This document shows, one piece after another, positions 9,727-60,612 of a stretch of DNA of 64,000 bases (its first letter is position 1; the number at the start of each line of letters is the position of its first letter). This DNA comes from an uncultured Thermoleophilia bacterium (GTDB lineage Bacteria > Actinomycetota > Thermoleophilia > UBA2241). The notes below the pieces were generated by a model. It ran no database searches, had not been told where the DNA came from, and saw only the letters and a list, made by a program, of their open reading frames with translations. The stretch covers positions 96,001 to 160,000 of the forward strand of contig CAVPCT010000004.1 in the NCBI GenBank assembly GCA_963702475.1, in the 5' to 3' direction. Position numbers and translations under genes: made by a program.

Positions 9727-9798
9727 GGGGGTCCTTTCGGTCGGCGGCGCCGAGCGGCGCGGGAGCGCCGCAGAGGCGCCGGCGGGGGAGGGGGCACC

Positions 9799-9842: not shown

Positions 9843-9853
9843 CAGCGGTCATG

Positions 9854-20210: not shown

Positions 20211-20359
20211 CGCCAGGCACGGCCACTGTGCCGCGTCGACAGAGGGAGACCGAGGGCCCACCAACGAGCTCATCTTGCAGCTGCATCCGCATCCGCGCCG
20301 CCCCTTGCTCGCGCACGGCGGACCACGAGTCGAGCAGCCAGCCGACGAGTCATGCCTAT

Positions 20360-20403
20360 CACAATGTGAAAAAAACCTATCATATTGTGGCACTTACAGT
20401 CAA
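20360..20403 (-). promoter_or_regulatory. AT-rich candidate promoter with inverted repeat upstream of mttB#3-Fd-AOR
   Basis: - strand TTGACT-N18-TAGGTT; inverted repeat CACAATGTGA-N10-TCATATTGTG at 20360-20389. Confidence 0.5.
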
Positions 20404-26102: not shown

Positions 26103-26115
26103 ACCGCCGGCCGGG

Positions 26116-27642: not shown

Positions 27643-29187
27643 TCAGAGGCGGCGCACGATGGCGGCGAACTGGCCGGCCGCCACGGCCCGCGCCGCCGCC
27701 TCCAGCTCCGGCGCCAGGTAGCGGTCGCGGCCGAGGGTGGGCGCGAAGGTCCTGACGAGGTCGCGCCCCGCTCTGGTCCCGGCGCCGGCTACCAGCGGCG
27801 CCAGCAGATCGATGGCCTGCGCCGCGCACAGCGCCTCGATGCCGAGCACGGCCTGCGCATTGCGCATCACGTCGCGCAGCTTCAGCGCCGAGGTCATGCC
27901 CATGCTCACGTGGTCCTCCTGGTCCCCGGAACTGGGGATGGAGTCGACGCTGGCGGGGTGGCACAGGACCTTGTTCTCGGCGACGAGGGCCGCCGCCGTG
28001 TACTGGGCGATCATGTAGCCGTTGTTGAGGCCGCTGTCGGTGGTGAGGAACGGCGGCAGATCACTGAGGGAGCTGGTCAGCATGCGGAACGTGCGGCGCT
28101 CGCTGATGTTGGCGATCTCGCTCAGGGCCATCGCCGCCAGGTCGAGTGCGAGGGCGAGCGGCTCCCCGTGGAAGTTGCCGGCCGAGATGATCTCGCCGCT
28201 CTCCGGGAACACGAGCGGGTTGTCCGTCACGGCGTCGACCTCGACAGTGACGACCTCGCGCAGCCAGCGCAGCGCGTCGCGGCAGGCGCCGTGCACCTGG
28301 GGGATACAGCGCAGCGAGTAGGCGTCCTGCACCTTGTCGCAGTTCAGGTGGCTGAGCATGATCGCGCTGCCCTCGGTGGCGGCGCGCACGTGGCGGGCCG
28401 TCAGGAGCTGGCCGGGGATCGGGCGCAGCTCCTGGATGCGCGCCTGGAACGGCCCGACGGAGGCGCGCAGGCCCTCCAGGCTCATCGCGCCGATCAGATC
28501 GGCGGAGTCGAGCAGCGCCTCGCCGTCGGCGACTGAGAGGCAGGCGATCGCCGCCATGAACTGGGTGCCGTTCAGCAGGCTCAGGCCCTCCTTCGCCTCG
28601 GGCACGAGGGGCGCGAGCCCGGCGGCCTGCAGAGCAGGCCCGCTCGGCTCGCGCCGCCCGTCGTCCGTGAGCAGTTCGCCCTCGCCCATCATCGCGAGGA
28701 CCAGATGAGCCGACGGGGCGAGGTCGCCGGAGGCGCCCAGCGAGCCACGCGACGGCACCCACGGCACCAGGTCGGCATTGAGCATGGCCGCGACCATCTC
28801 GGCGCAGGCGGCGCGCACGCCGGAGTGGCCACGCGCCATGGTGTTCAAGCGGATGACCATCGCCGCCCGCACGGTCTCACGGCTGAGCGGCTCGCCGACG
28901 CCCACGGCGTGACTGCGCACGAGGTTCTCCTGGAGCTCTTTGACCTTGTCGGCGGGGATGTGCGTGGTGGCCAGCAGGCCGAAGCCCGTCGTGACGCCGT
29001 AGGCGACCTGCTCTTCCGCGATGACGCGGGCGATCACGGCGTGCGCGGCAGCGATGCGGTGCAGCGCGGCCCGGCCCAGGGAGACCTGGGCCCCGCCGCG
29101 CGCGACCGCCACGACCTGCTCGATCGTGAGCGGCGCGTCGCCGATCACCAGCTCGGCGACACCTCGGCCGGGGACCGCCGCGCTCAC
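27643..29187 (-). CDS. hutH: Histidine ammonia-lyase
   Basis: YGVTTGFG, LVRSHAVG (His-type SH), GSLGASGDLAP (MIO), QDAYSLRCIPQVHG, GNFHG, QEDHVSMG. Confidence 0.95.
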   Translation of the reverse strand: MSAAVPGRGVAELVIGDAPLTIEQVVAVARGGAQVSLGRAALHRIAAAHAVIARVIAEEQVAYGVTTGFGLLATTHIPADKVKELQENLVRSHAVGVGEPLSRETVRAAMVIRLNTMARGHSGVRAACAEMVAAMLNADLVPWVPSRGSLGASGDLAPSAHLVLAMMGEGELLTDDGRREPSGPALQAAGLAPLVPEAKEGLSLLNGTQFMAAIACLSVADGEALLDSADLIGAMSLEGLRASVGPFQARIQELRPIPGQLLTARHVRAATEGSAIMLSHLNCDKVQDAYSLRCIPQVHGACRDALRWLREVVTVEVDAVTDNPLVFPESGEIISAGNFHGEPLALALDLAAMALSEIANISERRTFRMLTSSLSDLPPFLTTDSGLNNGYMIAQYTAAALVAENKVLCHPASVDSIPSSGDQEDHVSMGMTSALKLRDVMRNAQAVLGIEALCAAQAIDLLAPLVAGAGTRAGRDLVRTFAPTLGRDRYLAPELEAAARAVAAGQFAAIVRRL

Positions 29188-30077
29188 GAGCGCTTCGCCT
29201 TCTTCCGCTTCTCGAGCAGCTTCTGCAGCAGCGGCACGACCTCGAGCGGCGCCTTGGCCACGGGGATGCCGGCGGCCTCCAGCGCCTTCTTCTTGTCCGC
29301 GGCCGTGCCGGCGCCGCCCTCCACGATGGCGCCGGCGTGACCCATGCGCTTGCCGGGCGGCGCCGCGAACCCGGCCACGAACGCGACGACCGGCTTGGTC
29401 ACGTGCTTCTTGATGAACTGGGCGGCGGTCTCCTCGTCGTTGCCGCCGATCTCGCCGATGAGCACGATGGCCTCGGTCTCGGGGTCGGCCTGGAAGCGCT
29501 CGAGGCAGTCGACGAAACCGAGGCCGTGGACCGGGTCGCCGCCCATGCCGACCACGGTGGACTGCCCGATGCCGGCATTGGTGAGGGCGTTCAGGACCTC
29601 GTAGGTGAGCGTCCCCGAGCGCGAGACCAGGCCGACGGCGCCGGGCATGCACACGTCCGCCGGCATGATGCCGACGTTGCAGCGGCGCGGCGTGACCAGC
29701 CCGGGGCCGTTGGGCCCGATGAGCAGGGTGTTGCGCCGCTCCAGGTGGGAGATGACCTCGGCCATGTCGCGGGCGGGGATGTCCTCGGTGACGCAGACGA
29801 TGAGCCGGATGCCGGCGTCGGCCGCCTCGATCATGGCGTCGCGGGCGAAGCCCGCCGGCACGAAGATCACGGAGACGTCGGGCCTGGTCTGCTCCATGGC
29901 GTCGGCGACCGTGTCGAACACCGGCACGCCGCTCACCTCCTGGCCGCCGCGGCCCGGCGACGTGCCGGCCACGACGTTGGTGCCGGCCGCGCGCATGCGC
30001 ACGGCGTGGAAGGTACCCTCGCGGCCGGTGACGCCCTGCACGAGGACGCGCGTGTTCTCGTCGACCAGGATGGACAT
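29184..30077 (-). CDS. sucD: Succinate--CoA ligase alpha subunit
   Basis: [45 protein letters not shown]. Confidence 0.93.
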
Positions 30078-31276
30078 CAGCCGGCCTCCCCATCCGCGCC
30101 GGCGGCCGCCGGCGCCTCGTTGGACGCGAGCTCCCCGCGCGCCGCCGCCACGGCCATCGTGACCGCCTCGGGGGCGCTGGCCGCCACGTGCAGCTGCGGG
30201 AGCCCGGCCTCGGAGAGGATCTTGCGCCCCGCCGAGGCCGCCGTACCGTCGAGGCGCACGACCACGGGCGCCTCGACGCCGACCTCCGCGAAGGCCTGCA
30301 GCAGCCCCCGAGCCACCTCGTCGCAGCGCGTGAGGCCGCCGAAGATGCTCACCAGCACGGCCTTCACGCCGTCCGCGGCGAGCACGAGATCGAGGGCGTT
30401 GGCCACGACCTCGGCCCGGGCGCCGCCGCCGAGGTCGCAGAAGTCGGCGGCGGCGCCGCCGGCCGCGGCCAGCTGGTCGATGGTGCTCATCACCAGGCCG
30501 GCGCCGTTGCCCATCACGCCGATGTCGCCGTCGAGCGCGACGAAGGCGAGCCCGTTGCGGTGGGCTCGCGCCTCGCGCTCGTCCAGGCCCGCCTCAGAGA
30601 TGGCGGCGAAGTCCGGGTGCCGGAACAGGGCGCTGTCGTCGATCGTCACCTTGCTGTCGAGGCACACGACGGCGCCGTCGGGCGTGAGCGCCAGCGGATT
30701 GACCTCGAGCAGCGTGGCGTCGGTCTCCAGGTAGAGTCGCCACGCGGCCCGCACCACGGCCCACAGCGAGCGGCCGGCGAACGACTTGCGCGGCAGGCCG
30801 GCCGCGGCGAGCACGTCCCGCACCTGGTAGTCGCAGAGGCCGAGGAGCGGGTCGAGGGGCCGCCGGATCAGGGCGCCGGGGTCGCGGCGGGCGATGCTCT
30901 CGATGTCCACGCCGCCCTCGCGCGCGAACACCAGCACCGGGCCGCGGTCGGCGCGCGAGAGCATGAACGCCAGGTACATCTCGCGGGCGATGTCCGCGGC
31001 CTCCTCGATCAGCACGCACTCGACGGGCTTGTCCTTGATGGTCATCGCGAGGATCGCGCTGGCGGCCGCGTGCACGTCCTCGATGGTGGCGCACCTCTTC
31101 ACGCCGCCGGCCTTGCCGCGTCCGCCGGTCTTGGCCTGGGCCTTGACGACCACCGGCAGACCGATGCGCTTGGCGGCATCGACCGCCTCGGGCGGCGTCC
31201 ACGCGGTCTCGCCGGCCATCACCGGCAGCCCGGCTTTGGCGAACAGCTCCTTGCCCTGGTGTTCGAGCAGGTCCAT
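30077..31276 (-). CDS. sucC: Succinate--CoA ligase (ADP-forming) beta subunit
   Basis: MDLLEHQGKELF, GGRGKAGG, EGGVDIE, EVNPL, GNGAGL, IFGGLTRCD. Confidence 0.92.
   Translation of the reverse strand: MDLLEHQGKELFAKAGLPVMAGETAWTPPEAVDAAKRIGLPVVVKAQAKTGGRGKAGGVKRCATIEDVHAAASAILAMTIKDKPVECVLIEEAADIAREMYLAFMLSRADRGPVLVFAREGGVDIESIARRDPGALIRRPLDPLLGLCDYQVRDVLAAAGLPRKSFAGRSLWAVVRAAWRLYLETDATLLEVNPLALTPDGAVVCLDSKVTIDDSALFRHPDFAAISEAGLDEREARAHRNGLAFVALDGDIGVMGNGAGLVMSTIDQLAAAGGAAADFCDLGGGARAEVVANALDLVLAADGVKAVLVSIFGGLTRCDEVARGLLQAFAEVGVEAPVVVRLDGTAASAGRKILSEAGLPQLHVAASAPEAVTMAVAAARGELASNEAPAAAGADGEAG

Positions 31277-34306: not shown

Positions 34307-34310
<4 letters not shown>
33945..34310 (-). CDS. 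korD: 2x[4Fe-4S] ferredoxin (delta subunit)
   Basis: [12 protein letters not shown] and [16 protein letters not shown]. Confidence 0.88.
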
Positions 34311-35990
<1,680 letters not shown>

Positions 35991-36472
35991 TTCCGGCCTC
36001 GCCTCTTTCACGGTCGCTTTCCTGCACGCCGCTGCGCGGCGTCTGTCTCTCTCTTCGACTGTAGTACGCGCGCGCGGACGAGCCACCCGCAGGCGTCGTG
36101 GCGTCCCACATGCTGCACCGATTCTCCACCAATTGGGCTGTGGGCGCGCCCGGACGCCTCGCCCCGGGTGCGACCGTGCTCACACGGTGACTCGGGTGGC
36201 GCAGTGCCGACCGACGCACGGGGCACCAGGGCTGTGAAGGTGTTCGAGAAAGCCGCATACGCGTTCACCCCGGCATCACCCGCAAGGGCCCCTGTGACTG
36301 CCGTCAGAAGCAATGGGTGTTCTCTCCACTGCCAGAATGCTGTACTTTGTACTCTCGAACATACATGTATTCCCGTATCGCGGAATCGTGACCGCTGTCG
36401 ATACCGACTCGGACTCGGTGACCAGTGGCAACGCCGCACTGGAGGGATGTGATGGGTCAGCCTTCGGCATCG

Positions 36473-37349
36473 ATGGAAAACGGGCGCAACACCAGCTCGG
36501 CAGCACGCACGCTGGACATCCTTCAGTTCCTCGCGTGCCGCACCCATCCGGTGTCGGCGACCGTCATCGAAGCTGCCTGTGGCATACCTCGGTCGACGGC
36601 CTATACGCTGCTCAATCTGCTGAAGGAACGACGCTTCGTCACGTACTGGCGGGGAGAGCGTTGCTGGAGCGTGGGTCCGGCGACGTCCGAGCTGAGCACG
36701 ACAGCACCGCTGTTCGTCCACGGGCTTGGCGGTGCTGCGCGCGTTTGCGGCCACGAGAAGCAGCCTGTCGACGCGGGACATCGCCCAGCGAGCTCGGCTT
36801 TCCCAATCCACGGCAAGCTCGGGTCGTAGAGCTCCTCGTCACCAGCGACTTGCTTCACGAGGAAGCTGGTGGACGGTACTCCTTGGGGCTCGAGCTCGTG
36901 AGTCTCGCCTCGAGGTCGGGTGGGTCGATCGCCTGCGGATCATGTGTCATCCCCACCTCATCCGACTGCGGGACGCCACGCAGGAGACAGCCAACCTCGT
37001 CCTGCTCGACGGCGACCACGCTCTCTACATCGACCAGATCGAAAGCCGATACTCGCTCCGTCACAGCGGCTGGGTGGGACGAAGGGTCCCGCTCCAGGAC
37101 ACAGCAGTGGGCGCCGCGTTCGCGGACCGCTCGAAGGCACACGTCGCCGCGGACAAAGTCGAGATGGGCGTGACCGGCATAGTCCAGGCGCTTGCACTCT
37201 CAGAGGGCGATGCGGCCGTCAGTGTCTCCGGTCCCACTTGGCGCCTCAAGGAGTTTGGACTAAGTCGAGCGCGCCAGATGGTCGAGGCGGTGGCAAGAGA
37301 GACTGCGATGCGTGTAGACCGAGAGCGGGCGGAGCGAGTCGCTCGATAG
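36473..37349 (+). CDS. IclR-family regulator with tandem HTH domains, divergent from hutU (several frameshifts)
   Basis: RTLDILQFL..IPRSTAYTLL / second HTH RDIAQRARL / RLRDATQETANL, YIDQIES; colinear with 52246-53133. Confidence 0.8.
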
Positions 37350-37513
37350 CCTGACAACCTGAACCACGTCGGACGCCGCTCCCGCTGTCTCCTGGGATGC
37401 CACGAGACCTGACAGACCAGCCTGGCCGGCTGGCCCGGAGCGAACGGCCGTCGGACCTGGTTCTGCAGCTTCGATAGAGTCAGAAGGGATCGCGGCAAGG
37501 CCCGTGTCTTCGA

Positions 37514-38475
37514 TCAGCCGACCCGCGTCGCAAGTTCCCGTCGCAGTTCAAGGACTCTGACGAGGAACTCGTCCCGAAGCGTCCTCGAGCTCGCGAAGGC
37601 TGCGACCGGCCGTCTGCCGGTCGGTCTGCCGCTCGAGCTTGCTCGATGAGTTCCGGCGTGAGCGCCGGACACGTGTTGTACGACCAGTCCGCGGTGCGCG
37701 CCGGGTCGAACTGGCGAAGCGCCGAGGCCAGACCAGCATCACCGCCCTGCATCCAGTAGATCATCGCGGGGCCGAGGAGGGCGTACCGGAGACCCTGGCC
37801 ATCCCTCATGGCCACGTCGATCTCTTCCGTCGTCGCCACGTCTTCGTCGATGAGGTGGAACATCTCGCAGTAGACCGCCTCGAGCAGTCTGCTGCCGATG
37901 TAGCCGGGAATCTCGCGGCGCACGTGCAACGGGGTCTTGCCGAGTCGACGATAGAAGGCCATGGCCGTCTGCACAGCCACATCTGACGTCGACCGACCGC
38001 CCACGACCTCAACAAGGGGAACGATGTGGGCGGGGTTGAAGGGATGGCAGACGAGGACGCGTTCTGGTCTGCCACATCTCTTCTGGAGAGCGCTGGGGAT
38101 GATGCCCGATGAACTCGACGCGATGACGCACGCCGCGGGACTTGCCGTGTCTATCTCCGCCAGCAGATCGGCCTTGAGCTCCTCGTCGTCCGGCGCACAC
38201 TCCATGACGAAGTCGGCTTCGGCGACCGCCCCGTGAAGCGCCTGGTGGAAGGCGAGGTCGTCCGGCGAGACATCGGGCGCCATGCCCACGCGACTGAGCA
38301 TCGGCCACACGCGCCGCACTGTTTCCCGAAGCCTCTCCTCTGCCCCGGGGGCCGGGTCGCTCGCTGTCACGCTCAAGCCCTTCGCAAGGAGAAGTGCCGC
38401 GAGGCGCGAGCCGATCAACCCCGTGCCCACGACCGCCACCCGGCCGATATGCTGCGCGTCATCTCCGCTCGCCAT
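37514..38475 (-). CDS. L-carnitine dehydrogenase-like 3-hydroxyacyl dehydrogenase (C-terminal frameshifts)
   Basis: VVGTGLIG, DPAPGAE, IASSSSG, HPFNP..VPLVEVVGG, GLRYALLGP; end rebuilt as RDEFLVRVLELRRELATRVG*. Confidence 0.8.
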
Positions 38476-38521
38476 CACGCCTCCTTCACACCCCGTCCCG
38501 CACTGATATGCGCCGGCAGGC

Positions 38522-41069
38522 TCACTCCGGGAACCACTCCTCGCCGTAGTGCTCGCCCCTGCTGACGGCACCTTCGGCCAGGAGCTGCTCGATCTCCACG
38601 TCGCCGTAGCCGAGCTCGCGCAGGATCTCGACCGTCTGAGCGCCGTAGGACGGAGCAGGCCCAGGAATCAGCGTGCGCCGCCCCTGGTAGATGACCGCGT
38701 TCGGCGCCACCATGTCGACGGTGTGTCCGGACGGATGGTCCTCGTGCCGGATGAACAGCGGCCGTCCCGAGGTCACCAGGCCGGCGGCGGCGGCCTCAGA
38801 GACGAGATACTCGTCTCGCACGGCCGCCATCGACGTGACATGAGCGACTCCGACGCCGGCTGACATTCAGGATCTCCACCCACTCCGCCGCCGGGCGCTC
38901 GAGGAAACGCTCCTCCAAGAGAGCCTCAAGCATCGCGTCGGCCTTCTCCGCCTCCTGTCCTCGGGCGCGTGTCGGACCGTGGCCGAGAAGCTCCGGGGCC
39001 ACCTCAGGAAGGTCGGCGAACTGGGGCAAGCTGCGAAGATCGACGAATTGGTCCCGGCGCAGACCGATGAAGATCCAGCCGTCCGAGGCGCGATAGAGCC
39101 GGTAGAGGGCGTGCTCGCCCTTCGCCTCCGGCCCCGACGGCTCGTCGAAAGGCTGCCGCCCCTCGAAGTCGTACATGAGGGGCAGCTGGAGGAACTGGGC
39201 CGTCGCGGCCAAGCTGGTCTCCACGTGGGTGAACGCCCCGCGCCTCTCTGCAGCGTGGATCCCGACCAGAGCGGCGAAGGCGCCGAGATAGCCGGCCATC
39301 ATGTCGACGGTGCCGAGATGGGCGTGCTCCTCGGGCGTCTGCAGCGATCCACCGAACCGTGCCATGATTCCCGTCGCTGCCTGGGCGAGATCGTCGAATC
39401 CAAGCTCATCTGAGCGTGGACCGGGCCGGGGCCCGCCGAAGCCCGTGAACTGCACGAAGACGAGCTCGGGCTTGATCGACGACAACGACTCGACGGTCCA
39501 GACCGAGCCCGGGCAACTGCCGATCTGGTCCATTGAAGACGACGGCGTCAGCGGTCTTGACGAGGCGTGCGAACACCTCGCGGCCCCGCGGCTGACGAAT
39601 ATCGACCAGGACACTCCGCTTTCCGCAATTGCACTGCACGGCGAACATGTACGTGCAACTCTGGTCGAATCTGGGCTCGATGACGTCAAGCTTGATGACC
39701 TCGGCGCCGAAGCGTGTCAGCGTCGAGGTGATCGTCGGTCCGGCGATGACGTTGGTCAGGTCAAGGAACCGCAGGCCCGTCAGGGGCGAGGTCTGCGCGG
39801 CGGCGGCAGTCGACGGCCTGGGCCGCGTCCCCTGGGACCGCTCGGAGGCAGCCCCAGGGCGGATCTGGGAACCGCCCGCATCGGCGCTCTCGAGCCACGC
39901 GTGCGGGCCCTGATGAAGCATGCGGCCAAAAGGCGTCGCCGCGGCCTCCGTCACGAGGCCCGAAGCAATCGCGTGGTCGCTGTGGAGCCACTCCTGCGTC
40001 GTCATCTGCGGACAGCCGGGGGCGTGCCGCTCGCGGAACAGACGGTGCCACTCCTCGCTCGAGCGCTGGGCGAGACGCCGGCGGACAAGCGGGCGGATGC
40101 GATCCGCCCAGCGCTTCGACAGCGGATAGGCGTAGAGTGAGCCGCCCTCGGGATCTGCCCAGGTCGAGGATGGTGAGTACGGGTCCTCGAAAGGAAGACC
40201 ATCCGCCACGAGTTCGTCCCAGACGCCAAGGAGCCGCAACGTGCGCTCGGCGTGGCCGCGATGCCCGGGGGCGCAGACGTAGAACGGGCGACTATCGCTG
40301 CAACAGGTAGTTCTCGTAGAGCGGGTCGATGTACTCCCCCAGCTCTTCATAGCTCATGCGAGAGCGGGATCCCCTGCTCTTCGCGCCGGGCTATCTCACG
40401 TTCACGATGTGAGCGAAAACGGTCCGGCAGCCCGTGGATGTGCACGGTGCTGTAGACAAGGCTCTCGAGCACCGCGAGAGCGAGCGGTACTTCGATGATC
40501 TCGCCACGTCCATCGCGTTCTCTGGCATGAAGCGCAGCCATGACCGCGACCGCGGCAAGGGCGGCGGCGTTCGTCGAAGCGACAGGAAGCGGCGTGTAGC
40601 TGGGGATGATGCCACGCAGCTTGCGGTTGAGCCCCATGTCCGTGGACATCCCGAGCACCGCCGAGATCACGCCCTCCCACGCCGGCAGGCCCGCATGCTC
40701 TTCGTCCCTGGCGGAGAACCCGGGCAGAGACAGGTAGATGAGAGCAGGGTCGTCCGCGGTGAGGTCTTCGGCGCCGAGCCCCAACCGCCGCATGACGCCC
40801 GGGCGGAAGTTCTCGATGAGGACGTCGGCCCGGCGGATGAGGTCCCGCGCCTGCGTACGTCCACGCTCGGACTTCAGGTCGAGCTCGACGACCTTCTTGC
40901 CGCGGTTGAGGACCGCGTTCGCCGGATCCTTCCACAGCGGTCCGCCCGGCGGATCGACGTGCACGACGCGGGCGCCCTGGTCGGCCAGCATGAGGGCGAC
41001 CGCCGGACCGGCGACGTACTGCCCGAAGTCGACGACGCTGACGTCGCTCAGCGGTCCGTCAGCGGTCAT
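38522..41069 (-). CDS. DddD-like tandem-domain class III (CaiB/BaiF) CoA transferase (about 4 frameshifts)
   Basis: Two CaiB starts (DFGQYVAGP; LDLTNVIAGP) plus PANAVLNRGK, TDMGLNR, HAERTLRLLG, GFDD..QA..GIMARFG, PEEHAHLGT, DHPSGH; ORF pieces 40347-41087, 39406-40350, 38796-39689, 38522-38866. Confidence 0.8.
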
Positions 41070-41179
41070 TGTCCACCTCCAGGCCACCTGTCGGCATCGT
41101 CCTCAAGCCGGGCGCCGACCCACGTTCGCGGTACCAGGCACGGCGGTCCTTCCATTCTCCCGAAGGCTCTTGCCGCACG

Positions 41180-42052
41180 TCACTGAGGCGGAATGCCGAG
41201 CATGTCGCGAGCCTCGTCCACCGAAGCCGCTCGTGCGCCCAGGCGCTCGATGATCTCGATGGCGCGCGTCACGAGCTGTCCATTCGTGGCCGGCACGCCC
41301 TTCTCCAGGTAGAGGTTGTCCTCGAGGCCCACGCGCACGTTGCCCCCGAGGAGCACGGCCTGAGCGACCACCGGCATCTGCGCACGTGGAGATGCCACAG
41401 GCACTCCAGACTGCCCCCGCGGGCAGAGCATCGACCATGGCCAGCATCGTCTGTGCGGTCGCAGGGGCCCCAAAGGGCAGGCCGAGGACGAACTGGACCC
41501 ACGGTGGCCGTTCCAGGACGCCCGCTTCAGGAGAGTCGTGACGATGCTGAGCCCCGACAGGTCGAAGGCCTCCAGTTCGGGCTTGATGTGCAGCCGCAGG
41601 AGACGCTCAGCCATCCGCCGACACATCTGCGGCGTGTAGATGTTGACATCACGATCGGAGAACACAGCCGTCCCCAGATCGAGCGAGCAGATGTCGGGCA
41701 GAAGTTCCTCCGCATGGGCGATCCTCTCCAGGGCCGGGATCAGGACCGTACCCTCGGCGTACTCGGAGAGGTCGTCGTCGTCGAAGTAGACCTCGCCGCC
41801 CATGCCGCCCGTCAGGTTGATGAGCACATCGACGTTGCTGGCGCGCACCCGCTCGACGACCGTGCGGTAGTGCCCGGTCTCCAGGGAAGGAACGCCGGTC
41901 TCGGGGTCACGGACGTGGATGTGGACGATCGCGGCGCCTGCCTCAGCCGCCTGAATAGCGGCGTCGGCGATGGCGTCTGGCCCGACCGGTCGATGCCGAA
42001 CGGGCATCCCGGCACCAGTCACCGCACAGGACACGATCACGGTGTCACGCAT
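41180..42052 (-). CDS. Beta-keto acid cleavage enzyme (BKACE/DUF849; dehydrocarnitine cleavage-like), internal compensating frameshifts
   Basis: VSCAVTGAG, AGAAIVHIHVRDP, INLTGG, PDICSLD, KPELEAFD, GGNVRVGLEDN. Confidence 0.88.
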   Translation of the reverse strand: MRDTVIVSCAVTGAGMPVRHRPVGPDAIADAAIQAAEAGAAIVHIHVRDPETGVPSLETGHYRTVVERVRASNVDVLINLTGGMGGEVYFDDDDLSEYAEGTVLIPALERIAHAEELLPDICSLDLGTAVFSDRDVNIYTPQMCRRMAERLLRLHIKPELEAFDLSGLSIVTTLLKRASWNGHRGSSSSSACPLGPLRPHRRCWPWSMLCPRGQSGVPVASPRAQMPVVAQAVLLGGNVRVGLEDNLYLEKGVPATNGQLVTRAIEIIERLGARAASVDEARDMLGIPPQ

Positions 42053-42175
42053 CGGTCGACTTCCTTTCGGATCGCATCTCTGCCCGGGGACTGAGGGTCG
42101 AGGCGCACTTCACGAGGTGCCCGTGTCGCTGAGGCGGGCGGCCGGACACGCGGGAGCCCTCGTCCGCCGCTCTCA

Positions 42176-42796
42176 TCACTCCCCCACCTCCCGGCCGGCG
42201 GCGAACGCCGCCAGGTTCAGCTCGTACCAGCTCTTCGGGACGTTGCGGGCGATGGCCTGCCGCCAGGTCTCGACCGCGAACGGCAGGTGCGTGGAGAGCG
42301 CGCCGACGAGCACGATGCCGGCCACCTTGAGGTCGCCGACCTCGAGCGCCACGGCGTTGCCGTCGACGACCACGACGTCGTGGCCGGCCGCGGCCATGCG
42401 CGCGGCCGCGTCGAACGGGTAGGTGTGCTCGCCCTGCGAGGCCAGGGGCGGCACGATCTGCTGGGTGTTGACGATGGCCACGCCGTCGGGCGTGAGCGCC
42501 GGCGCGGCGCGCAGCCCCTCGGCCGCCTCGAAGGCCAGCAGGTAGTCCACTTCGCCGGGGCTGATGCTCGGCGCGACCACCCGCTTGCCGATGCGGATGT
42601 GCGAGCTCACGCTGCCGCCGCGCTGGCTCATGCCGCGGGTCTCGCTGAGCTTGACCTCGAGGCCGCCGTTGAGCAGCGCCGCGTCGGCGACGACGGCGGC
42701 GGCCACGATCACGCCCTGGCCGCCGACGCCCACGACCATGATGTCGTCGACCACGCCGGGGGCGTAGTGCAGGGCGCAGGCGTTCGGGGCGCTCAT
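42176..42796 (-). CDS. iorB: Indolepyruvate:ferredoxin oxidoreductase beta subunit
   Basis: GVGGQG, SETRGMSQRGGSV, AFEAAEGLR. Confidence 0.88.
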   Translation of the reverse strand: MSAPNACALHYAPGVVDDIMVVGVGGQGVIVAAAVVADAALLNGGLEVKLSETRGMSQRGGSVSSHIRIGKRVVAPSISPGEVDYLLAFEAAEGLRAAPALTPDGVAIVNTQQIVPPLASQGEHTYPFDAAARMAAAGHDVVVVDGNAVALEVGDLKVAGIVLVGALSTHLPFAVETWRQAIARNVPKSWYELNLAAFAAGREVGE

Positions 42797-44686
42797 GCCA
42801 CGCCCGCCTTCGTGATGGCGCCGGGCTTGCAGAGCTGCGCGCAGAGCGAGCAGCCGGTGCAGGTCTCGGCGTCGATGGCCACCTTGTGGCGGCTCTTGTG
42901 CGTGGCCTCAACGTGCCGCAGCGAGGGGCAGCCGAGCTGCAGGCACTGCTGGCAGGCGTTGCAGAGCGCCTCGTCGACCGCGTAGGGCTCGCCGGAGAGC
43001 TTGGCCGGGAAGAGCATGCAGGGGCGCGTCGTGATGAGCACGGCCGGGCCCTCGAAGGCGAGAGCGGCCCGCAGTGCCTGCAGGCAGGCCCCGTAGTCGT
43101 AGGGGTCGACGTGCACGACGTGCTCGACGCCGAGGGCGCGGCAGATGACGGCGATGTCGACGGGCTTCGTCTCCGCGCCGGCGAGGGTCTGCTCGTTGCC
43201 GGGGTTGGTCTGGCCGCCGGTCATGGCGGTGATGCGGTTGTCCTGGATGAGCACGGTCACGTTGGTGCGCTGGTGGACGGCGTTCAGCAGCCCCGTGAGG
43301 CCGCTGTGCAGGAAGGTGGAGTCGCCGATCACGGCGATGGAGCCCTTCTCGCTGCCCCCGGCGCGCCTGAAGCCCTGCTCGAGGGGGATGCTGGCGCCCA
43401 TCTCGAAGGCCGAGTGCATGTGGCAGACCGGCGGCAGCGTGGTGAGGTCGTAGCAGCCGATGTCGCCGTGCACGTCGAGGTCGAGCTTCTTCATCGCCGT
43501 GGCCATGCCGCGGTGCGGGCAGCCGCTGCACAGCACGGGCGGCCGCGGGATGACTGTGACGTCCTCCGCGGCCTTCTCCTCGGCCCAGCGCGGCAGGTCG
43601 AGGCCGGCCTCGAAGAAGCCCCGGCCGACACGCACGGCGGTCAGCTCGCCCCACTGCGGGAACCACTGCTTGCCCTCGCAGGCGATGCCGGCGGCGAGGA
43701 GCTGCTCCTCGAGGTACGGCTCGAGCTCCTCGACCACGAACAGGCGGTCGACCGTCGCGGCGAAGCGGCGGATGACCTCGAGGGGCAGCGGCTGGATCAT
43801 GCCGAGCTTGAGGAAGCGGGCGTCGGGCAGGGCCTCCTTGGCCGAGACGTAGGCGGCGCCGGCGCTGAGCACGCCGATGCGCGCCGCGCCGCCGCCCTGG
43901 AGCGCGACCAGGCCGGCGCCTGCGGCGCCGGCCCCGGCCTCGACGCGCGCCAGCTCGCCGGTGAGCGCCGTCGCCTCGGCGTACTGCCGCAGGCGCTCGA
44001 CGCGTTCCAGCAGGCTGCGGTGCAGCGGGCGCGAGAAGCGCGGCAGCAGGCTGTACTTCGCGGTGATGCGGTGCGGCGGCTTGCGCTCCGGCGGCGTGAC
44101 GGCGCAGGCGCGCGCGGGTCGCCGTCGCCGCGCGGCCGCGGCCGTCCGCGCCGTCCTCGTCGTCCGCGCCGATGCGCACGAGCGACTTCTGGTGCGCCGT
44201 CTGGATGCTGAGGCGCACCATCACCGGCACGTCGAACTGCTCGCTGATCTCGAAGGCCAGGCGGGTGTACTCGTAGCACTCCTGGCTGTCGGCCGGCTCC
44301 AGCATCGGCATGCTGCTCATGCGGCCGAAGTAGCGGTCGTCCTGCTCGGTCATGCCGCTGGCCATGCCGGGGTCGCCGGCGAGGCAGACGACGAGGCCGC
44401 CGTTGACGCCCGTGTACACGGAGCTGATGAGCGGGTCGGCGGCCACGCTGGCGCCGGCGCTCTTCATCGCCGTGAGGGCGCGGGCGCCGCCCATGGAGGC
44501 CCCGAACGCCACCTCGTAGGCGACCTTCTCGTTGGTGGACCACTCGGCGTAGACGCCGTCGTAGCGCGCCAGGCTGGTGACGATCTCGGTGCTGGGCGTG
44601 CCGGGGTAGGCCGCCGCCACCTGCACGCCCGCCTCCCAGGCGCCGCGCGCCACGGCCTCGTTGCCCAGCATCAGGTGCGTTTCCAT
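42793..44686 (-). CDS. iorA: Indolepyruvate:ferredoxin oxidoreductase alpha subunit (frameshift near 44120)
   Basis: LGNEAVARG, YPGTPSTE, NEKVA / PPVLCSGCPHR, GDIGCY, IGDSTF.HSG, TAMTGGQ, C-terminal ferredoxin. Confidence 0.9.
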
Positions 44687-44927
44687 GCAGTCCCTCGCGG
44701 TCGAAGTCCGAGTAGCTGCCGGCTCCCGGCAGACACAGGTTCAGTCTGGCGGGGACGATGCGGGTGGCGGGGCCTTCGGCGCGGTATTCCGCCCCGTCGG
44801 ACGATTCCGAAGGGCGCGGAGCACATCAAGTCCGAAATGGTGGCCTGGATGCTCGTCAGAATGTGCACCGTCAGACGCCGTTGAGCGCCCCACGCCGAAG
44901 ATCTGGCGCAACCATCGGCGCCCTCTG

Positions 44928-46313
44928 TCACAAGGACTTGCAGTACGTCTTGAGCTGCCGCTCCGTGATGGAATCAAGGCTCGGCTCGCACATAGGACGC
45001 CAGGAGCTCCTCGACCTTCTGTCGTGCCACCGTTGCGGAGTCCGTCCACCGGCGCGGGACCAGCCGTCGTGAAGCAGGCGATTGAGAAGGGCTGGTGCTG
45101 CAGACCCCTGCCGTGTCTGCGGGTATGCGATTGGCTGAGGAAGTTGCCGCCCAGGTCCCACCGCGTCAATCACCTCGAACGCCAGGTCGTCGTCGTCGAC
45201 TGGGATCGCCCGCAGCGCCGCGCGCAAGAGGCCGACAACAGCATCGTCGATCACCAGCTTCTCCCAAGACACGCCATTGCCTGAGCTGATCGCGCCGACT
45301 GCGTTCAAGACGAAGTCGACTCCTTTCTGCATCACGGCGGCGAGGCCGAGGGCGCTCTCGACCCCCGCCTGCATGTCGACAACGTGAGAGTCGGTGACCG
45401 CCCCCCCGGCCTTGCACGGCAGGCCCAGGAAGTGACCGAGATCCACGGTCGTCGCCATCAACGCCCAGAACTCGGGCACACCGAAGAGCAGGTCTCCCGT
45501 CCGCATGGAGGCAACGGAGGAGAAGCCGGAATACAGGCAGGGACACCCCTCGCCGGCAAGCTGCGCCAGAACCAGGCCGGCGAGCGTCTCGGCGTGTTGC
45601 AGCGCCAGAATGCCGGCGAGCGACGCCGGTCCCGTCGTGCCTCCCATGACGCACGGCGTCACCGTAAGGGGCTGATGGCGACGCGCAAGCTCGAGGATGG
45701 TCGTGCAGTGGCTCTCGTCAAGCTGGAGCGGTGACGTGCTGTTGAGGCACAACGAGAGTCTCTTGGCAACTCGTGCCAGTCACCCCCAAACAGGATCTCC
45801 GCCATCTGCAGGACCACGGGCAGCTGACGTTGCTCGGCGACGGGGTACTCCAGCGGCTTGTCGGTCATGCACATCGATCGACACAGGGTCTCCGCATAGC
45901 AGACCGGGTCGGTCCAGTCGACCGGCGCCAGCGAGTAGCCGACCAGGTCCACGTTGTCAAGGACGTGGCAGAGGCGCAGCGAGCGAACGAAATCGTCCAT
46001 GGTCGCCTGGCGTAGATGGCCCTTCTTCGGCGACGCACGACGCCCCTCCCGCATTGCTGATGATCGTGTCGCCACCTCCGAACACAAGGTCCCGGTCTCG
46101 GAGCCCTTGCCGCGACCGTGAAGGACCGCGGCACCGTCGACACCGCAGCCATCACCTGATCGGCGGTCATGTAGACACGTGACTCCGTCGACGCGGAATC
46201 CTCTTGCGGCAAAGAGACGGACAGCCTGATCGCCGCGGAAGACGAAACCGGTCTCCTCGAGGATGCGCAGGCCCGCCGCGTGCAGCCTCGAGAGCCGTTG
46301 CCGCTCCCATCAT
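44928..46313 (-). CDS. MttB-superfamily methyltransferase #6 (non-pyrrolysine, MtgB-like motifs), multiple frameshifts
   Basis: LHAAGLRILEETG; MTDKPL; NSTSPLQ, MGGTTGPASLAG, KAGGAVTDSH..DMQAG, VGPG. Confidence 0.78.
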
Positions 46314-46468
46314 CAGTTCCCCTTCACTGCTCCTGTGATCTCTGCGTCAGGCTGCCTTCACGCCACGAAGACGCGTCTCTCGCGCCTTTCATCGAGTCGC
46401 AGCGCAGCCAGCGATCCGGATGCTGCGCGCCGGGGCGACCTCCTCGATGCGCCTGGCTTCATGCGTCT

Positions 46469-48116
46469 CTACGCGATGTACGCCCGCGTCAGGTCGAGGA
46501 ACTCCGCCCCGTTCGCCTCGACGCCCATGACCTTCTTGTTCATGGCGCGGAGCGCCTCGATCCATAGGCGATGACGCAGGGTGTCTCGTCTGTCTGGAGG
46601 GTCGCCATCTGCGTACCGATGTCTCTCCGAGACGCTTCGTCCAGGGTCGCATCGTACTGCTCCGCCAGCCTGTCAAACTCGGAGTTCTTCCAGCCCGTGT
46701 TGTTCCACACCCCGGTGGATGTGAGCATGGGAAGGAAGAACTGGGACGGTATGGCCTTCGCGGCCCAGTCGGTGATGCCAAAGGGCACCGTCAGCCACGG
46801 AGCGCTCTCGTCCGAGCCGTAGTACATCGTCTGTGTCTGGAGCTGGATCTTCACGTTTATGCCCGCCGGCTCGCACTGGGCCTTGATGATCTGCGCGTAC
46901 TGCGGCACCTCGAGGTACTCCTCGGCGACGAGTGTGACGTCCAGCCCGTCGGCCATACCCGCGTCGGAGAGCAACTGCTTGGCCTTCTCGTAGTCTTGGG
47001 CACGTTGCTCGATGGACACGCCGATCGGGTAGAGCGAGCAGAAGACGTTGTCGTTGCCGATCAGGCCCTTGCCATCGAACAGGCTGTCGAGCAGCCCCTG
47101 CCGGTCGAGGCAGCAGGCGACCGCCTGGCGTACGTTCTTGTCGGTGAAGGGCGCCTTGTCGACGCGCATCTGCACCTCGCGCATCTGCGTGGAAGGCGTC
47201 GAGACGATCTTGACGTTGGGGTCGCCGAGCAAACCCTGCGACCCCTGGAACGGTGTCGAGAGCTGCATGTCCTGGCTGCCCGACTGCAACTGCAGGGTCT
47301 GGGCCTGTTCCTCAGCGTAGGAGACCGTGACTCCGTCGAGATAGGGCAGCCCCGACTGCCAGTAGGTGGGGTTCTTCGCGAACTGGGCGCTCTGCTTGGA
47401 CGTGTAGGCAGTCAGGGTGAACGGGCCCGTGCCCACCGGGCTCTTCTCGAAGTCGCCGGCGTAGTCCTTCGGCAGCATGACGCAGTCATAGTTGGACGAT
47501 GAGACGAGATAGGGGAAGTCGACGAAGGCGCGGTCCAACCCGAACTCGACGGTGCTGTCGTCGACTGCGCGGACCCCATCGGGCGAGAGGATGCCTTGGA
47601 AGTTGGTGAGTGCAGCTGAGCCGGCCGCCGGATCCGCAAGGCGCTTGATCGTGGCCACGACGTCATCGGCAGTGAACGGTTGCCCGTTGCTGAAGGCGAC
47701 GTTCTGGCGCAGCTTGAAGGTCCACGTTTGCGCCGTCGCGTCCGGAGTCCAGCTCTCGGCCAGGACGGGCGAAGAGTAAGGTCGTTCTCAGCCCAGGTCA
47801 GGTATTCGCACACGAGCTGGATCGTGGCGATGGCGCCGGCGTCGTACATGGTGACGGGGTCGAGGGCACCCGTGGGCGGCATCATCGTGACGCGGAGAGT
47901 ACCCCCGGCTTTCGGTGCAGCGCTGGTCGTTGCCGAGGGCGACGCGGTGGAGCTCGGCATGTCGTCGCCGCACGCGGAAAGCAGCGAGCCGAGCGTCGTC
48001 AACGACAATCCAAGAACACTCCCTCGAACCAACATCTGGCGCCGCGTCATGCGTCCTCGGGCGACCTCATCCAGCAGGTGCTGGCTGAGCTCTCTCTGCA
48101 ACTGGTTCTCATGCAT
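46469..48116 (-). CDS. ABC substrate-binding protein, family 5, Tat-lipoprotein (frameshifts near 47775 and 46565)
   Basis: MTRRQMLVRG...LSAC; VGTGPF, NPTYW, LPYLD, PFTDKNVRQA, WNNTGW. Confidence 0.87.
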
Positions 48117-48620: not shown

Positions 48621-49244
48621 TCAGGCGACGATCGCCTTGCAGAGGCTCACGGCGCCGGGCGCGTCCGACGCGTAGCCGTCGGCCTGGATCTCGTCGGCGT
48701 AGGGCTGCGTGAGCGGCGCCCCGCCGACGATGGCCTTGGCGCGCACGCCGGCCTCGTGCATGGCCTCCACCGTCTTGCGCATCTGCGGCATGGTCGTCAC
48801 GAGCAGGGCCGACATGCCGACCACCGCCGCGTCGTGCTCCTTGGCGGCGGCCACGAACTCCTCGGGCGCCACATCGGTGCCCAGGTCGATCACATTGAAC
48901 CCGGCGCCCTCGAGCATGAGCACCACGAGGTTCTTGCCGATGTCGTGCAGGTCGCCCTTGACGGCGCCCATCACGACGGTGCCCTTGCCGCCGCTCACGC
49001 CCTCCACGAGGAGCGGCTTGAGCAGGGCCAGGCCCTCCTGCATGGCCTCGGCCGAGATGAGCATCTCGGGGATGAAGAGGTCGCCCTTGGCGAACAGGTC
49101 GCCGATGGTGTCCATCGCCGGGATGAGGCCGTTGTCGAGGATGTCGCCGGCCTCGTTGCCCTCGTCCAGGTACTTCTGCGTGAGCTGCGGGGCGGCGTCC
49201 ACGTCGCCCTCGATCACTGCCTGCTTCAAGTCTTCAAACGCCAT
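48621..49244 (-). CDS. Corrinoid methyl-accepting protein (MttC/MtqC-type)
   Basis: GLIPAM..IGDLF, FIPEML, KGDLHDIGKNLV (DxHxxG), DLGTDV, MSALL, VGGAP. Confidence 0.95.
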   Translation of the reverse strand: MAFEDLKQAVIEGDVDAAPQLTQKYLDEGNEAGDILDNGLIPAMDTIGDLFAKGDLFIPEMLISAEAMQEGLALLKPLLVEGVSGGKGTVVMGAVKGDLHDIGKNLVVLMLEGAGFNVIDLGTDVAPEEFVAAAKEHDAAVVGMSALLVTTMPQMRKTVEAMHEAGVRAKAIVGGAPLTQPYADEIQADGYASDAPGAVSLCKAIVA

Positions 49245-49298
49245 CGTTCCTCCAGAGAGTCTCAGTGAGAGGCCGGTCGGCGGATCTCACGGTGCGAG

Positions 49299-49366
49299 GC
49301 CGGCGGGCGGGCCGCCGCGCTGGGGCGCCCGGAGGGCGTCCGGTCGCGGCGGCGGCCCGCCGGCTG
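49299..49366. terminator. Long imperfect GC hairpin between mttB#7 and the corrinoid gene
   Basis: CCGGCGGGCGGGCCGCCGCG...GGGCGCCC-ggag-GGCGTCC...CGCGGCGGCGGCCCGCCGG. Confidence 0.45.
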
Positions 49367-49379
49367 AGCCGTCCGGCTG

Positions 49380-50822
49380 TCAGCCGGCGAGCGCCTTGTC
49401 GGCGGCCTTCACGACGTTGTCCATGTCGCGCTTCACGTCGTCCGGCAGGTCGAGGGGCTGCAGGTCCTTCTTCAGCTCCTTGTACAGCTCGACGGCGCGG
49501 GTGTGCAGGTCCTTGCGGCCCGCGGCGATCCAGTTGTCGAGCACATCGGGCACGAGAAGGTCGGGACGGATCATCTCGCGGCAGTGACGGAGCGTGTGCC
49601 TGCGGCGCAGGTAGTGGCCGCCGGCGCCGGCGTCGATGATCTCCTCGACGGCGAGGTTCTCGTCGTCGACCTGCACGCCGGCCACGGTGCGCTGGATGAC
49701 GGCCAGGATACGGTCGTCGATGACCAGCTCGACCGGGCTGGCGAGCGTCGAGCCGCCCAGGCGGCCGGCGCCGTACAGGATGTCCGCGCCGGCCATGGAG
49801 AGCACCGCCGGCTGCAGGGTCTTCTCGGAGGCCGTCTGGCCGTCCGGCACGTAGGAGTCGGCCATCATGGAGAAGGTCTCGACCGGCACGTTCCACGCCG
49901 CCTTGCAGAACTGGGCGCAGGCGGCGCGCGTGAGGATCGTCTCGCTGCTGGCGAGCAGGGCGTTGCCGGTGCCGAGGTCCATGGTCGTGTTGAACACGGT
50001 GGCGACGAACGGCAGGCCGGGCTTGAACAGCTGGCTCATGGTGAGGAAGGCGAGCAGCTCGACGGCCTCGAGCAGCACGGTGCCGGCGATGGTGCCGGGC
50101 GCGGTGGCGCCCAGAACGGGCAGCGAGTTGGCGGCCACGGGGATGTCGTACTCGGCAGCCCCGGCCAGCTGCGCCATGTCCATGTCCTTGAACACCAGCG
50201 GACTCAGGGACGTGGGGTTGATGAGCAGCAGCGGGCGCTTGCGCAGCTCGTCGGCGCCGCCGGCCCGCGCCAGCATGAGGTCGAAGAGGTACGGCACGCT
50301 CTCGTAGCAGTAGGCGAGGAGCATGAGCGGCTTGGACGTGTTCTGCAGCTGCACGTTGAGGCCGTGCACATCCGCCGTCTCCATGGGGGCGTCCATGGGG
50401 GTCTGGATGGCGCACACGTCGATGTTGGGGAGGATCTCGACGAGCTGGCACCACTCGGCGAAGCGCTGGTGCGTGTTGTCAACGTAATCGCCGGAGTCAG
50501 GGTCGAGATAGCGCATGGTCTGGACGCAGGTGGTGGAGTAGAAGCGACCCGTGGGGTCAGGCACGGTGAAGTCGTGCTTCTCGTCGCCGCCTTTGACGGT
50601 GACGCTGTGCGGCACGGTCTCGAGAGCCCCGGCGATCACATCGGCCGGGAACTTGACCATGCGCGTCTCGTGATCCACCTGTGCACCGGCGGTCTCGAGG
50701 CGCTTGAGCGACTCCTCGTGGTCGACCTTGACCCCGTAGGTGGACAGGATGTGGACAGCCTTGTCGTGGATCGAGGCGACGTCCGCCTCCTCCAGCAGCT
50801 GCACCCGCAAGGTCTTGGCCAT
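49380..50822 (-). CDS. MttB-superfamily methyltransferase #7 (non-pyrrolysine, divergent)
   Basis: IHDKAVHIL..YGV, NTSKP, INPTSLSPL, LGATAPGTIAG, KPGLPF, MMADSYVPDGQ, GAGGHYL. Confidence 0.9.
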   Translation of the reverse strand: MAKTLRVQLLEEADVASIHDKAVHILSTYGVKVDHEESLKRLETAGAQVDHETRMVKFPADVIAGALETVPHSVTVKGGDEKHDFTVPDPTGRFYSTTCVQTMRYLDPDSGDYVDNTHQRFAEWCQLVEILPNIDVCAIQTPMDAPMETADVHGLNVQLQNTSKPLMLLAYCYESVPYLFDLMLARAGGADELRKRPLLLINPTSLSPLVFKDMDMAQLAGAAEYDIPVAANSLPVLGATAPGTIAGTVLLEAVELLAFLTMSQLFKPGLPFVATVFNTTMDLGTGNALLASSETILTRAACAQFCKAAWNVPVETFSMMADSYVPDGQTASEKTLQPAVLSMAGADILYGAGRLGGSTLASPVELVIDDRILAVIQRTVAGVQVDDENLAVEEIIDAGAGGHYLRRRHTLRHCREMIRPDLLVPDVLDNWIAAGRKDLHTRAVELYKELKKDLQPLDLPDDVKRDMDNVVKAADKALAG

Positions 50823-51155
50823 GGCTTCTCCCTCTCGCTTGGTGTCATCGTGCGGTCGCGGGGGCGCCGGTCTGACCGGCGCGGCACGGCCGCGACGCGC
50901 ATTGACGGTGGGTCCGGCGGAGGGACGGGACGTGCGGTGTGGCCCTCCTCCGTTCCCGAATCAGGTCCAGGACGTGCCCTTGTCCCGATTCTGGAACGCG
51001 CCTACCGTAGCGATACAGCTTCGGCGAGCACAAGCGCGACGCGCCGTCCGTCCGGGATGTCGGACGGTAATGGGGGCGACGTCCAGCACGCGGGGGGGCC
51101 GGGGCGACCGCGTCCGGCAGGAGCGCCGGCGGGTGCGACGGCCGCGGTCGGGCGG

Positions 51156-60597: not shown

Positions 60598-60612
60598 GCT
60601 CGGTCTCGTGCT

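Follow-up and report, generated by a model that had tools for sequence, protein, structure and literature searches.

Positions 37514-42052 of a 64,000-nucleotide stretch from an uncultured Thermoleophilia bacterium (contig CAVPCT010000004.1, positions 96,001 to 160,000; the whole stretch is called the window here) hold a full-length relative of DddD, the coenzyme A (CoA) transferase/lyase associated with the release of dimethyl sulfide (DMS) from dimethylsulfoniopropionate (DMSP), next to two genes that recall carnitine breakdown. The window has a G+C content of about 70%, and its 4.3-Mb genome (9 contigs, 94% complete, 6.5% contamination) is that of an anaerobe-like, Thermoleophilia-related actinobacterium rich in MttB-family genes. 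The rpoB product shares 94% identity with a protein of an Actinobacteria MAG and 86-87% with proteins of Thermoleophilia MAGs. Pfam matches and reading frames delimit three genes, all on one strand:

41180..42052, minus strand: beta-keto acid cleavage enzyme (BKACE) of the carnitine-cluster type (PF05853, 220 bits)
38522..41069, minus strand: DddD-family double class-III CoA-transferase of about 848 codons (two PF02515 domains over three open reading frames)
37514..38475, minus strand: carnitine-dehydrogenase-like (CDH-like) 3-hydroxyacyl dehydrogenase (PF02737 + PF00725)

Only 110 nt separate BKACE from the transferase and 46 nt the transferase from the CDH-like gene. The CoA_transf_3 domain is spread over three overlapping open reading frames within 41087-38796, and 3HCDH_N/3HCDH fall within 38571-37480. 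A sequence-only reading of this DNA had described a double-CaiB gene of roughly 850 codons between DUF849 (BKACE) and carnitine-dehydrogenase-like genes, and Pfam and the reading frames confirm that arrangement. All seven motifs it had named (PANAVLNR, TDMGLNR, HAERTL, LDLTNVIAGP, GFDD, PEEHAHLGT, and DHPSGH) are found in the stop-to-stop translations, and because the CDH stop codon ends at 37514, the interval 37514-42052 has the CDH stop and the BKACE start as its exact limits.

The transferase gene is interrupted by four frame breaks. Alignment by tblastn nonetheless runs colinearly along residues 1-848 of four intact homologues of 832-849 aa, in five segments (frames -3, -1, -2, -3, and -1) that extend from 41069 to 38525 plus the stop codon. 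The gene is therefore a single double-CaiB gene, and the pair of separate CaiB genes for which the sequence-only reading had allowed is not what lies here. Its three reading-frame pieces score 176, 96, and 112 bits against PF02515 (cut-off 23.3) and cover two domains. The Asp of the domain 2 GFDD motif aligns with the GYD Asp of the solved class-III transferases 9br6 and 4ed9, while domain 1 carries a Glu (in "AWE") at the catalytic position where Rv3272 and Frc-like chains have Asp; this residue, E132, is invariant in 22 family members. With PF02515 above its gathering score and a catalytic Asp in the G-[YF]-D motif, the protein is a class-III (CaiB/BaiF) CoA-transferase, and as a fused, colinear double CaiB that keeps 105 of 113 near-invariant columns (those at least 98% conserved) it belongs to the DddD family in the broad sense. 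The middle fragment matches 359 longer proteins (about 830-850 aa with PF02515, 38-49% identity), among them proteins of Burkholderia ambifaria, Pseudomonas, Halomonas, Marinobacter, and Oceanimonas and one named DddD.

The protein resembles DddD in its length of about 830-850 aa, its two PF02515 domains, and its combination of a domain 1 Glu with a domain 2 Asp. Unlike DddD, it has no dddB, dddC, dddA, or dddT neighbors and is encoded between BKACE and a CDH-like gene. CaiB is a crotonobetainyl-CoA:carnitine CoA-transferase that acts on betaine-type CoA esters. Escherichia coli CaiB (PDB 1xk6, 1xvt) shares the class-III fold, and window domain 1 matches it at E 1e-11; however, CaiB, encoded in the anaerobic cai operon, has about 405 aa and one domain and forms a homodimer, whereas the window gene is a distant, fused double-domain form (49.6 bits against the L-carnitine CoA-transferase model NF002914). 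The DddD family as a whole matches that model weakly.

Placement within the family was assessed with a scan of species-representative genomes, which returned at least 590 relatives, of which the best 80 loci were kept. The resulting 99-row tree combined these loci with the window protein, 12 database proteins, the NGR234 and D. shibae plasmid copies, two Pseudomonas second paralogues, and two further proteins. Experimentally ratified DddD copies reportedly include those of Marinomonas MWYL1, Halomonas HTNK1, B. ambifaria, and S. fredii NGR234 (Todd et al. 2007/2010). A 21-row clade (SH-aLRT 100, stem 0.62) contains NGR234, the B. ambifaria cluster representative, Halomonas- and Oceanimonas-type proteins, and the Pseudomonas second paralogues. 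Ten of its rows have an iron-dependent alcohol dehydrogenase (Fe-ADH) plus an aldehyde dehydrogenase (Aldedh) of the dddB/dddC type nearby and four a GMC gene of the dddA type; BKACE/CDH neighbors occur at none. The other 76 rows include all 17 with BKACE and CDH (16 loci and the window) and 14 beside a DMFA2_C gene, and none with dddB and dddC.

The window protein, with its frame breaks read through as the sequence-only reading had proposed, falls outside this DMSP-type clade. It groups with the metagenomic proteins P0002 and P0003 (support 100), in an enclosing clade of eight rows (support 97) whose other members are Brevibacillus, P0005, and three Streptosporangiaceae. Forcing it into the 21-row clade is rejected by 74.4 lnL units (p-AU 0.0004) in an approximately unbiased (AU) test on 39 of the 99 rows, the group having been named after the tree was seen. 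The protein thus does not group with DddD in the strict sense, as represented by a tree set that lacks Marinomonas MWYL1. Identity alone does not split the groups: the window protein has 54% identity with P0003, against 47% with the NGR234 copy and 46% with the B. ambifaria type, and its identity to dddB/dddC- and GMC-linked copies is 44-47% over more than 800 residues. By its sequence, then, the window transferase is a DddD-family member on a branch outside the dddB/dddC-linked DMSP-type clade. Its surroundings lack canonical ddd synteny as well, with no Fe-ADH, Aldedh, GMC, or BCCT match to the query panel in the window between 29 and 51 kb. Across the host genome there was no BCCT, GBBH (gamma-butyrobetaine hydroxylase), Rieske, GMC, or DMFA2 match, Fe-ADH and Aldedh not having been searched genome-wide. 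An 829-aa frame in a related genome (G036) that looked DddD-like proved to be an acyl-CoA dehydrogenase joined to a single CaiB domain.

Linkage of the family to BKACE and CDH recurs well beyond the window. With neighbor genes scored by a tblastn panel within 8 kb, BKACE and CDH both accompany the DddD-family gene at 16 of the 80 loci; when the queries are the BKACE and CDH of the window itself, the count is 17, including three at a 30-32% BKACE match and one edge fragment. The linked loci span Bacillota, Actinomycetota, Alphaproteobacteria, and Gammaproteobacteria, in hosts such as Brevibacillus, Streptosporangiaceae, Marmoricola, Pseudomonas, Marinobacterium, Oceanisphaera, Motiliproteus, Cohaesibacter, Algihabitans, Thermohalobaculum, and Arenicellales. 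By the same panel, dddB, dddC, or a close GMC gene occurs at none of the 16. Pfam annotation of 26 named loci established that the linked genes often lie side by side on a single strand, in varied order: BKACE-CDH-thioesterase-DddD-like in Brevibacillus, BKACE-DddD-like-CDH/thioesterase in Arenicellales (the window order, except that the window has no thioesterase), DddD-like-BKACE-CDH-BCCT in Marinobacterium and Oceanisphaera, and BKACE-SBP-DddD-like-CDH/thioesterase-ABC in Cohaesibacter. The conserved BKACE/CDH linkage on which the earlier reading had staked its case is therefore borne out in several phyla and several gene orders. Other carnitine-type neighbors among the 80 loci are GBBH-like genes (6), BCCT genes (19), acyl-CoA dehydrogenase (7), enoyl-CoA hydratase (7), and ADP-forming acyl-CoA synthetase (8). 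Since the last three occur at only 7-8 loci, the minimal conserved module is BKACE, CDH, and the DddD-like gene.

Two genomes hold both contexts at once. Pseudomonas taeanensis MS-3 and Pseudomonas sp. MBLB4136 each encode two DddD paralogues that are 46-47% identical, one facing Fe-ADH-Aldedh-LysR (with BCCT too in MS-3) and the other in a BKACE-CDH-GBBH-BCCT cluster. The former arrangement is that of the Marinomonas-type dddBCDRT cluster as given in the available part of PMC9327192. The coordinates are as follows:

P. taeanensis MS-3 (G042), DddD paralogues: C9:182552-185056 and C1:129724-132240
G041, DddD paralogues: C1:723524-726034 and C1:4242101-4244623

A third conserved context of the family is a gene resembling the N,N-dimethylformamidase beta subunit (DMFA2_C), which stands beside the DddD-like gene at 17 of the 80 loci, mostly of the Roseobacter group and usually with an AraC/DJ-1 regulator:

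DMFA2_C loci: L040, L053, L056, L058, L063-L067, L070, L072, L078, L079, L086, L088, L090, L092 (D. shibae pDSHI01 35848-37389)

In the sulfate reducer Desulforhopalus singaporensis (L029 4377-14311) the DddD-like gene is flanked by BCCT, by MttB-family genes on both sides, and by an OYE/Pyr_redox flavoprotein, which makes this host another anaerobe in which the DddD family meets MttB genes.

With X inserted at its breaks, the window BKACE was likewise placed in a tree. It joins all BKACEs of the DddD-linked carnitine clusters, those of L046, L033, and L055 included, in a clade of 15 rows (SH-aLRT 100), and this defines it as a carnitine-cluster BKACE; four other BKACE paralogues of the host genome lie outside the clade. 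At those same three loci the CDH-thioesterase fusions pass the NCBIfam carnitine 3-dehydrogenase cut-off of 592, with 724 bits (L046), 791 bits (L033), and 657 bits (L055). Fusions of this Sinorhizobium meliloti type are shared by linked loci, and Bazire et al. (2019) are said to have placed the S. meliloti CDH/thioesterase fusion in a carnitine-to-glycine-betaine route. The side-by-side CDH-like and BKACE genes also recall Pseudomonas aeruginosa cdhCAB and the S. meliloti carnitine route; in the accessible portion of PMC12482172, CDH yields 3-dehydrocarnitine, which BKACE converts with acetyl-CoA into acetoacetate and betainyl-CoA. Unlike the CDH-BKACE-thioesterase route, the window adds a DddD-like transferase, and no such thioesterase was found in the genome.

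This context points to a role of the DddD-like transferase in betaine/carnitine metabolism and not in DMS production. Given the minimal conserved module, the transferase most likely handles the BKACE product. In the scheme proposed here, the dehydrogenase would oxidize L-carnitine (or a closely similar 3-hydroxy acid with an onium group) to its 3-keto acid, and BKACE would use acetyl-CoA to turn this into acetoacetate and betainyl-CoA. The DddD-like enzyme would then move CoA from betainyl-CoA to acetate or acetoacetate and free glycine betaine, so that the thioester would be conserved instead of hydrolyzed. With acetate as the acceptor, acetyl-CoA, the BKACE cosubstrate, would be regenerated; with acetoacetate, acetoacetyl-CoA would form and its activation would be spared. 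Alcolombri et al. (2014) reportedly found DddD to work with acetyl-CoA and acetate. The onium group of betainyl-CoA sits on the alpha carbon, and beta-elimination of the DMSP-CoA type is impossible; hence no lyase step would be anticipated for carnitine. We infer the substrates, the direction of transfer, and the operon status, and we give about an even chance to the proposal that the transferase of this three-gene module unloads betainyl-CoA in such a thioester-keeping way. The broader proposition, that a large branch of the DddD family is a CoA-recycling partner of BKACE and no DMSP lyase, and that the window enzyme is the sole exit for betainyl-CoA in this genome, is more tentative, and we hold it less likely than not.

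The thioesterase question bears directly on this last point. The sequence-only reading had the DddD homolog replace the thioesterase, and for this genome that fits: no homologue of five cluster thioesterase sequences (three free, two CDH-fused) was found at E<=1e-6. As a general statement it fails, because a 4HBT_2 thioesterase, free or CDH-fused, is retained at 15 of the 19 CDH-bearing loci; the remaining four are L013, L018, L023, and L088, and in two of them the cluster lies at a locus or contig edge. That the transferase is not a general thioesterase replacement is one of several points that weigh against the proposed role. The best model for the window CDH is L-carnitine dehydrogenase NF005471, but its 290 bits, over positions 7-277 of 321, fall below the cut-off of 414, and neither NF005471 nor NF005716 assigns it as an equivalog, its frameshifted C-terminus having lowered the score. 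Similarly, the best NCBIfam model for the window BKACE is Kce, at 153 bits against a cut-off of 382, in a collection that has no equivalog model for a dehydrocarnitine-cleaving BKACE. With both enzymes below all NCBIfam equivalog cut-offs, carnitine is unproven as the substrate, and the donor and acceptor of the transferase are guesses from sequence. A place outside the DMSP-type clade is no proof of non-DMSP activity. Furthermore, none of 40 related genomes searched has a DddD-family gene, the window protein retains the fewest conserved columns of 93 rows, and the module carries 7 breaks in 4.54 kb, against roughly 0.08-0.15 per kb in genes of the same genome.

These last observations lead to the strongest alternative, in which the frameshifts are real and the three genes, whatever the family does in other organisms, are decaying into pseudogenes in this strain and no longer yield protein. 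The seven breaks comprise two in BKACE (a compensating pair, near 41525 and at 41384, that leaves the middle segment out of frame), four in the transferase (near 40360, 40305, 39490, and 38866), and one in the CDH-like gene (near 37590), whose last 16 residues lie in another frame and match a paralogue on contig C5 at 87.5% identity. The genomic break rate comes from 54 MttB and 24 SBP_bac_5 loci of the host, 112 kb in all, which contain 9 within-gene frame switches counted strictly and 17 with tandem loci included; rpoB and rpoC, about 8 kb together, are unbroken. None of the break sites is in a long homopolymer. Decay would also suit the loss of conserved positions (93 of the 124 columns that are 90-98% conserved are kept, beside the near-invariant ones given above), the long terminal branch of the window protein (0.88 vs 0.34 for its sisters), and the absence of the gene from the genus relatives searched. 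On the other hand, the transferase shows no large deletion by tblastn and no in-frame stop in its five pieces, and both catalytic residues, Asp and Glu, are kept. Independent sequence was available as contigs from four runs of one study, labeled freshwater sediment metagenome, many of them 98.7-100% identical to parts of the window; the runs are recorded as "DNA?" with no library record and were taken as short-read data from their 151-nt contigs. These contigs cover two of the seven break sites, and both are in frame: a 153-nt contig at 41384 and a 150-nt contig at 39490 each lack one base, which restores the frame, with one and eight other differences, respectively. Because both covered sites read through, most breaks are likely consensus errors. 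Unrelated neighbors are broken too (urocanase, the alpha gene of an indolepyruvate:ferredoxin oxidoreductase (IOR), one MttB, and two SBP genes), and codon-phase switches per 4 kb number 6, 4, and 7 across 36-48 kb and 5 at 8-12 kb, compared with 1-4 elsewhere. Consensus quality of the assembly is thus uneven, with 8000-12000 and 36000-48000 rich in switches and other parts of the window, like rpoB/rpoC, clean. We therefore regard the stretch as probably poorly polished and strain-heterogeneous, with frame breaks that are mainly consensus errors. The two covered sites speak against the true pseudogene that the sequence-only reading had named as fatal to its proposal, and we consider decay doubtful but keep it in view.

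A different function for an intact enzyme, which we consider unlikely, would be that of a CaiB-like shuttle that exchanges CoA among the esters of gamma-butyrobetaine, crotonobetaine, and carnitine, for instance between carnitinyl-CoA and gamma-butyrobetaine, and leaves betainyl-CoA alone. The acyl-CoA dehydrogenase, CaiD-like hydratase, and ADP-forming acyl-CoA synthetase found beside some DddD-like genes would fit such a shuttle, all the more as the best NCBIfam model for the hydratase is crotonobetainyl-CoA hydratase (335 bits, below the cut-off of 500), as the hydratase directly follows the DddD-like gene in L023, and as the family scores, if weakly, against NF002914. Yet the window, L011, L018, L019, and L053 have BKACE, CDH, and the DddD-like gene with none of those three genes nearby, and the best matches to all three in the host genome are on other contigs.

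Finally, the gene could encode an onium-propionate CoA-transferase/lyase that releases DMS or trimethylamine (TMA) from DMSP or beta-alanine betaine, its position among carnitine genes reflecting no more than a shared island for onium compounds in general; a bolder version has BKACE turn a 5-onium-3-oxopentanoate (gonyol-type) into 3-onium-propionyl-CoA for cleavage by the DddD-like enzyme. We give this only a slight chance. The high identity to dddB/dddC- and GMC-linked copies and the retention of all family-invariant catalytic positions are what a lyase would show, and L018, L019, and L022 are flanked by LysR and BCCT genes like canonical dddR and dddT. DMSP is mainly a marine solute, whereas the contigs near-identical to the window come from runs labeled freshwater sediment metagenome, and betainyl-CoA cannot be the substrate of a beta-elimination. 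An isolate related to P. taeanensis MS-3 makes DMS from DMSP according to the available part of PMC9327192, but the MS-3 genome also has the canonical paralogue and dddP. The BKACE/CDH-linked loci lack dddB, dddC, and a close GMC gene, both kinds of paralogue occur together in two genomes, and an actinobacterial DddD-like protein was inactive on DMSP in E. coli, as the accessible text of PMC6309047 has it.

Beyond the three-gene module, the following neighbors deserve mention:

42179..44686, minus strand: IOR-like alpha and beta genes, directly upstream of the module (POR_N, TPP_enzyme_C, and POR domains)
46543..47787, minus strand: SBP_bac_5 solute-binding protein, a possible uptake component (Pfam)
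48624-49286, minus strand: corrinoid protein (Pfam; best NCBIfam model MtgC, 192 bits vs a cut-off of 370)
49383-50960, minus strand: MttB-superfamily methyltransferase (Pfam; NCBIfam 345 vs a cut-off of 525)

The IOR alpha gene is divided between two frames. In NCBIfam the pair match IOR_alpha and IOR_beta best, though under the cut-off in each case; from their position alone, the IOR-like genes may be part of the operon. Both carnitine-type BKACE genes of the genome adjoin an IOR-like gene, the second at G000:C7:64779-75262 (L102), where BKACE precedes genes for a short-chain dehydrogenase/reductase, a thiolase, and an AMP-forming ligase; still further downstream, past the IOR-like gene, lies one for an ADP-forming acyl-CoA synthetase. 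The SBP_bac_5 gene may also be tied to the BKACE-DddD-CDH operon, and in L033 and L053 SBP_bac_5 systems of the ATP-binding cassette (ABC) type are embedded within BKACE-DddD-CDH clusters. The corrinoid and MttB genes at 48624..50960 form a possible downstream demethylation module. As glycine-betaine enzymes they could not be upheld, all being below the NCBIfam equivalog cut-offs, and among solved structures the MttB scores higher with the TMA methyltransferase 7xcl (187 bits) than with MtgB 2qne/9yce (118 bits). Base composition was also considered as a sign of horizontal transfer (GC of 0.65-0.68 at 36-42 kb vs 0.70-0.75 nearby), and the claim was dropped because other stretches are equally low and GC3 is unreliable in broken reading frames.

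The MttB superfamily is expanded throughout this genome, with 54 loci; contig C4 carries 24, and the window has at least 7. All copies score below the TMA-methyltransferase equivalog cut-off, and corrinoid-protein and SBP_bac_5/Opp-type ABC genes lie in between. Among the MttB genes are also two histidine-ammonia-lyase-family genes, a frameshifted urocanase, and an FTCD-domain gene, which could serve plain histidine use or the breakdown of histidine betaines (hercynine, ergothioneine):

MttB copies in the window: 4469-6394, 8314-9966, 18684-20393, 24720-26207, 44931-45779, 49383-50960, 59191-60612
Histidine-type genes: 4-2142, 6643-8094, 27646-30348, 34307-36086

Elsewhere in the genome, the ribonucleotide reductase large-subunit gene at G000:C5:600165-603992 (L103 2165-5992) contains an intein with a LAGLIDADG endonuclease domain.

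Relatives of DddD that are not DMSP lyases are already known: in the available parts of the two reports, a Microbacterium ZYFD042 DddD-like gene expressed in E. coli gave no DMSP cleavage (PMC6309047), and Ruegeria pomeroyi SPO_RS08640 is listed as "dddD-like" and treated as no DMSP lyase (PMC9769926), neither being assigned a function or a BKACE/CDH setting there. A literature search, supplements excluded, found no pairing of DddD with carnitine dehydrogenase, BKACE, DUF849, or dehydrocarnitine; DddD, carnitine, and CaiB do co-occur in work on Endozoicomonas. What is new relative to the searchable literature is the BKACE/CDH context and a proposed positive function for the non-DMSP relatives. 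Genome and metagenome surveys use dddD counts to indicate DMS production, with filters set at >=40% identity and >=800 aa in the available part of PMC9327192. Because window-like copies, at 44-47% over more than 800 residues, pass these filters, the caution on dddD-based DMS estimates voiced in the sequence-only reading is reasonable, and if such copies are betaine-CoA transferases, tallies made without placement in the canonical clade would over-count DMS potential. Intact homologues in culturable Pseudomonas, Marinobacterium, and Brevibacillus make the enzymes easy to test, and the two-paralogue Pseudomonas genomes mark strains suited to telling both functions apart. If betainyl-CoA is indeed unloaded by the DddD-like transferase, the carnitine/BKACE pathway would gain an energy-saving step not found described in the literature searched, and the conversion of carnitine to glycine betaine would become thioester-neutral. 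For this bacterium, glycine betaine could then pass to some of the roughly 54 MttB-family loci, which would amount to an oxygen-free route for carnitine that does not produce TMA.

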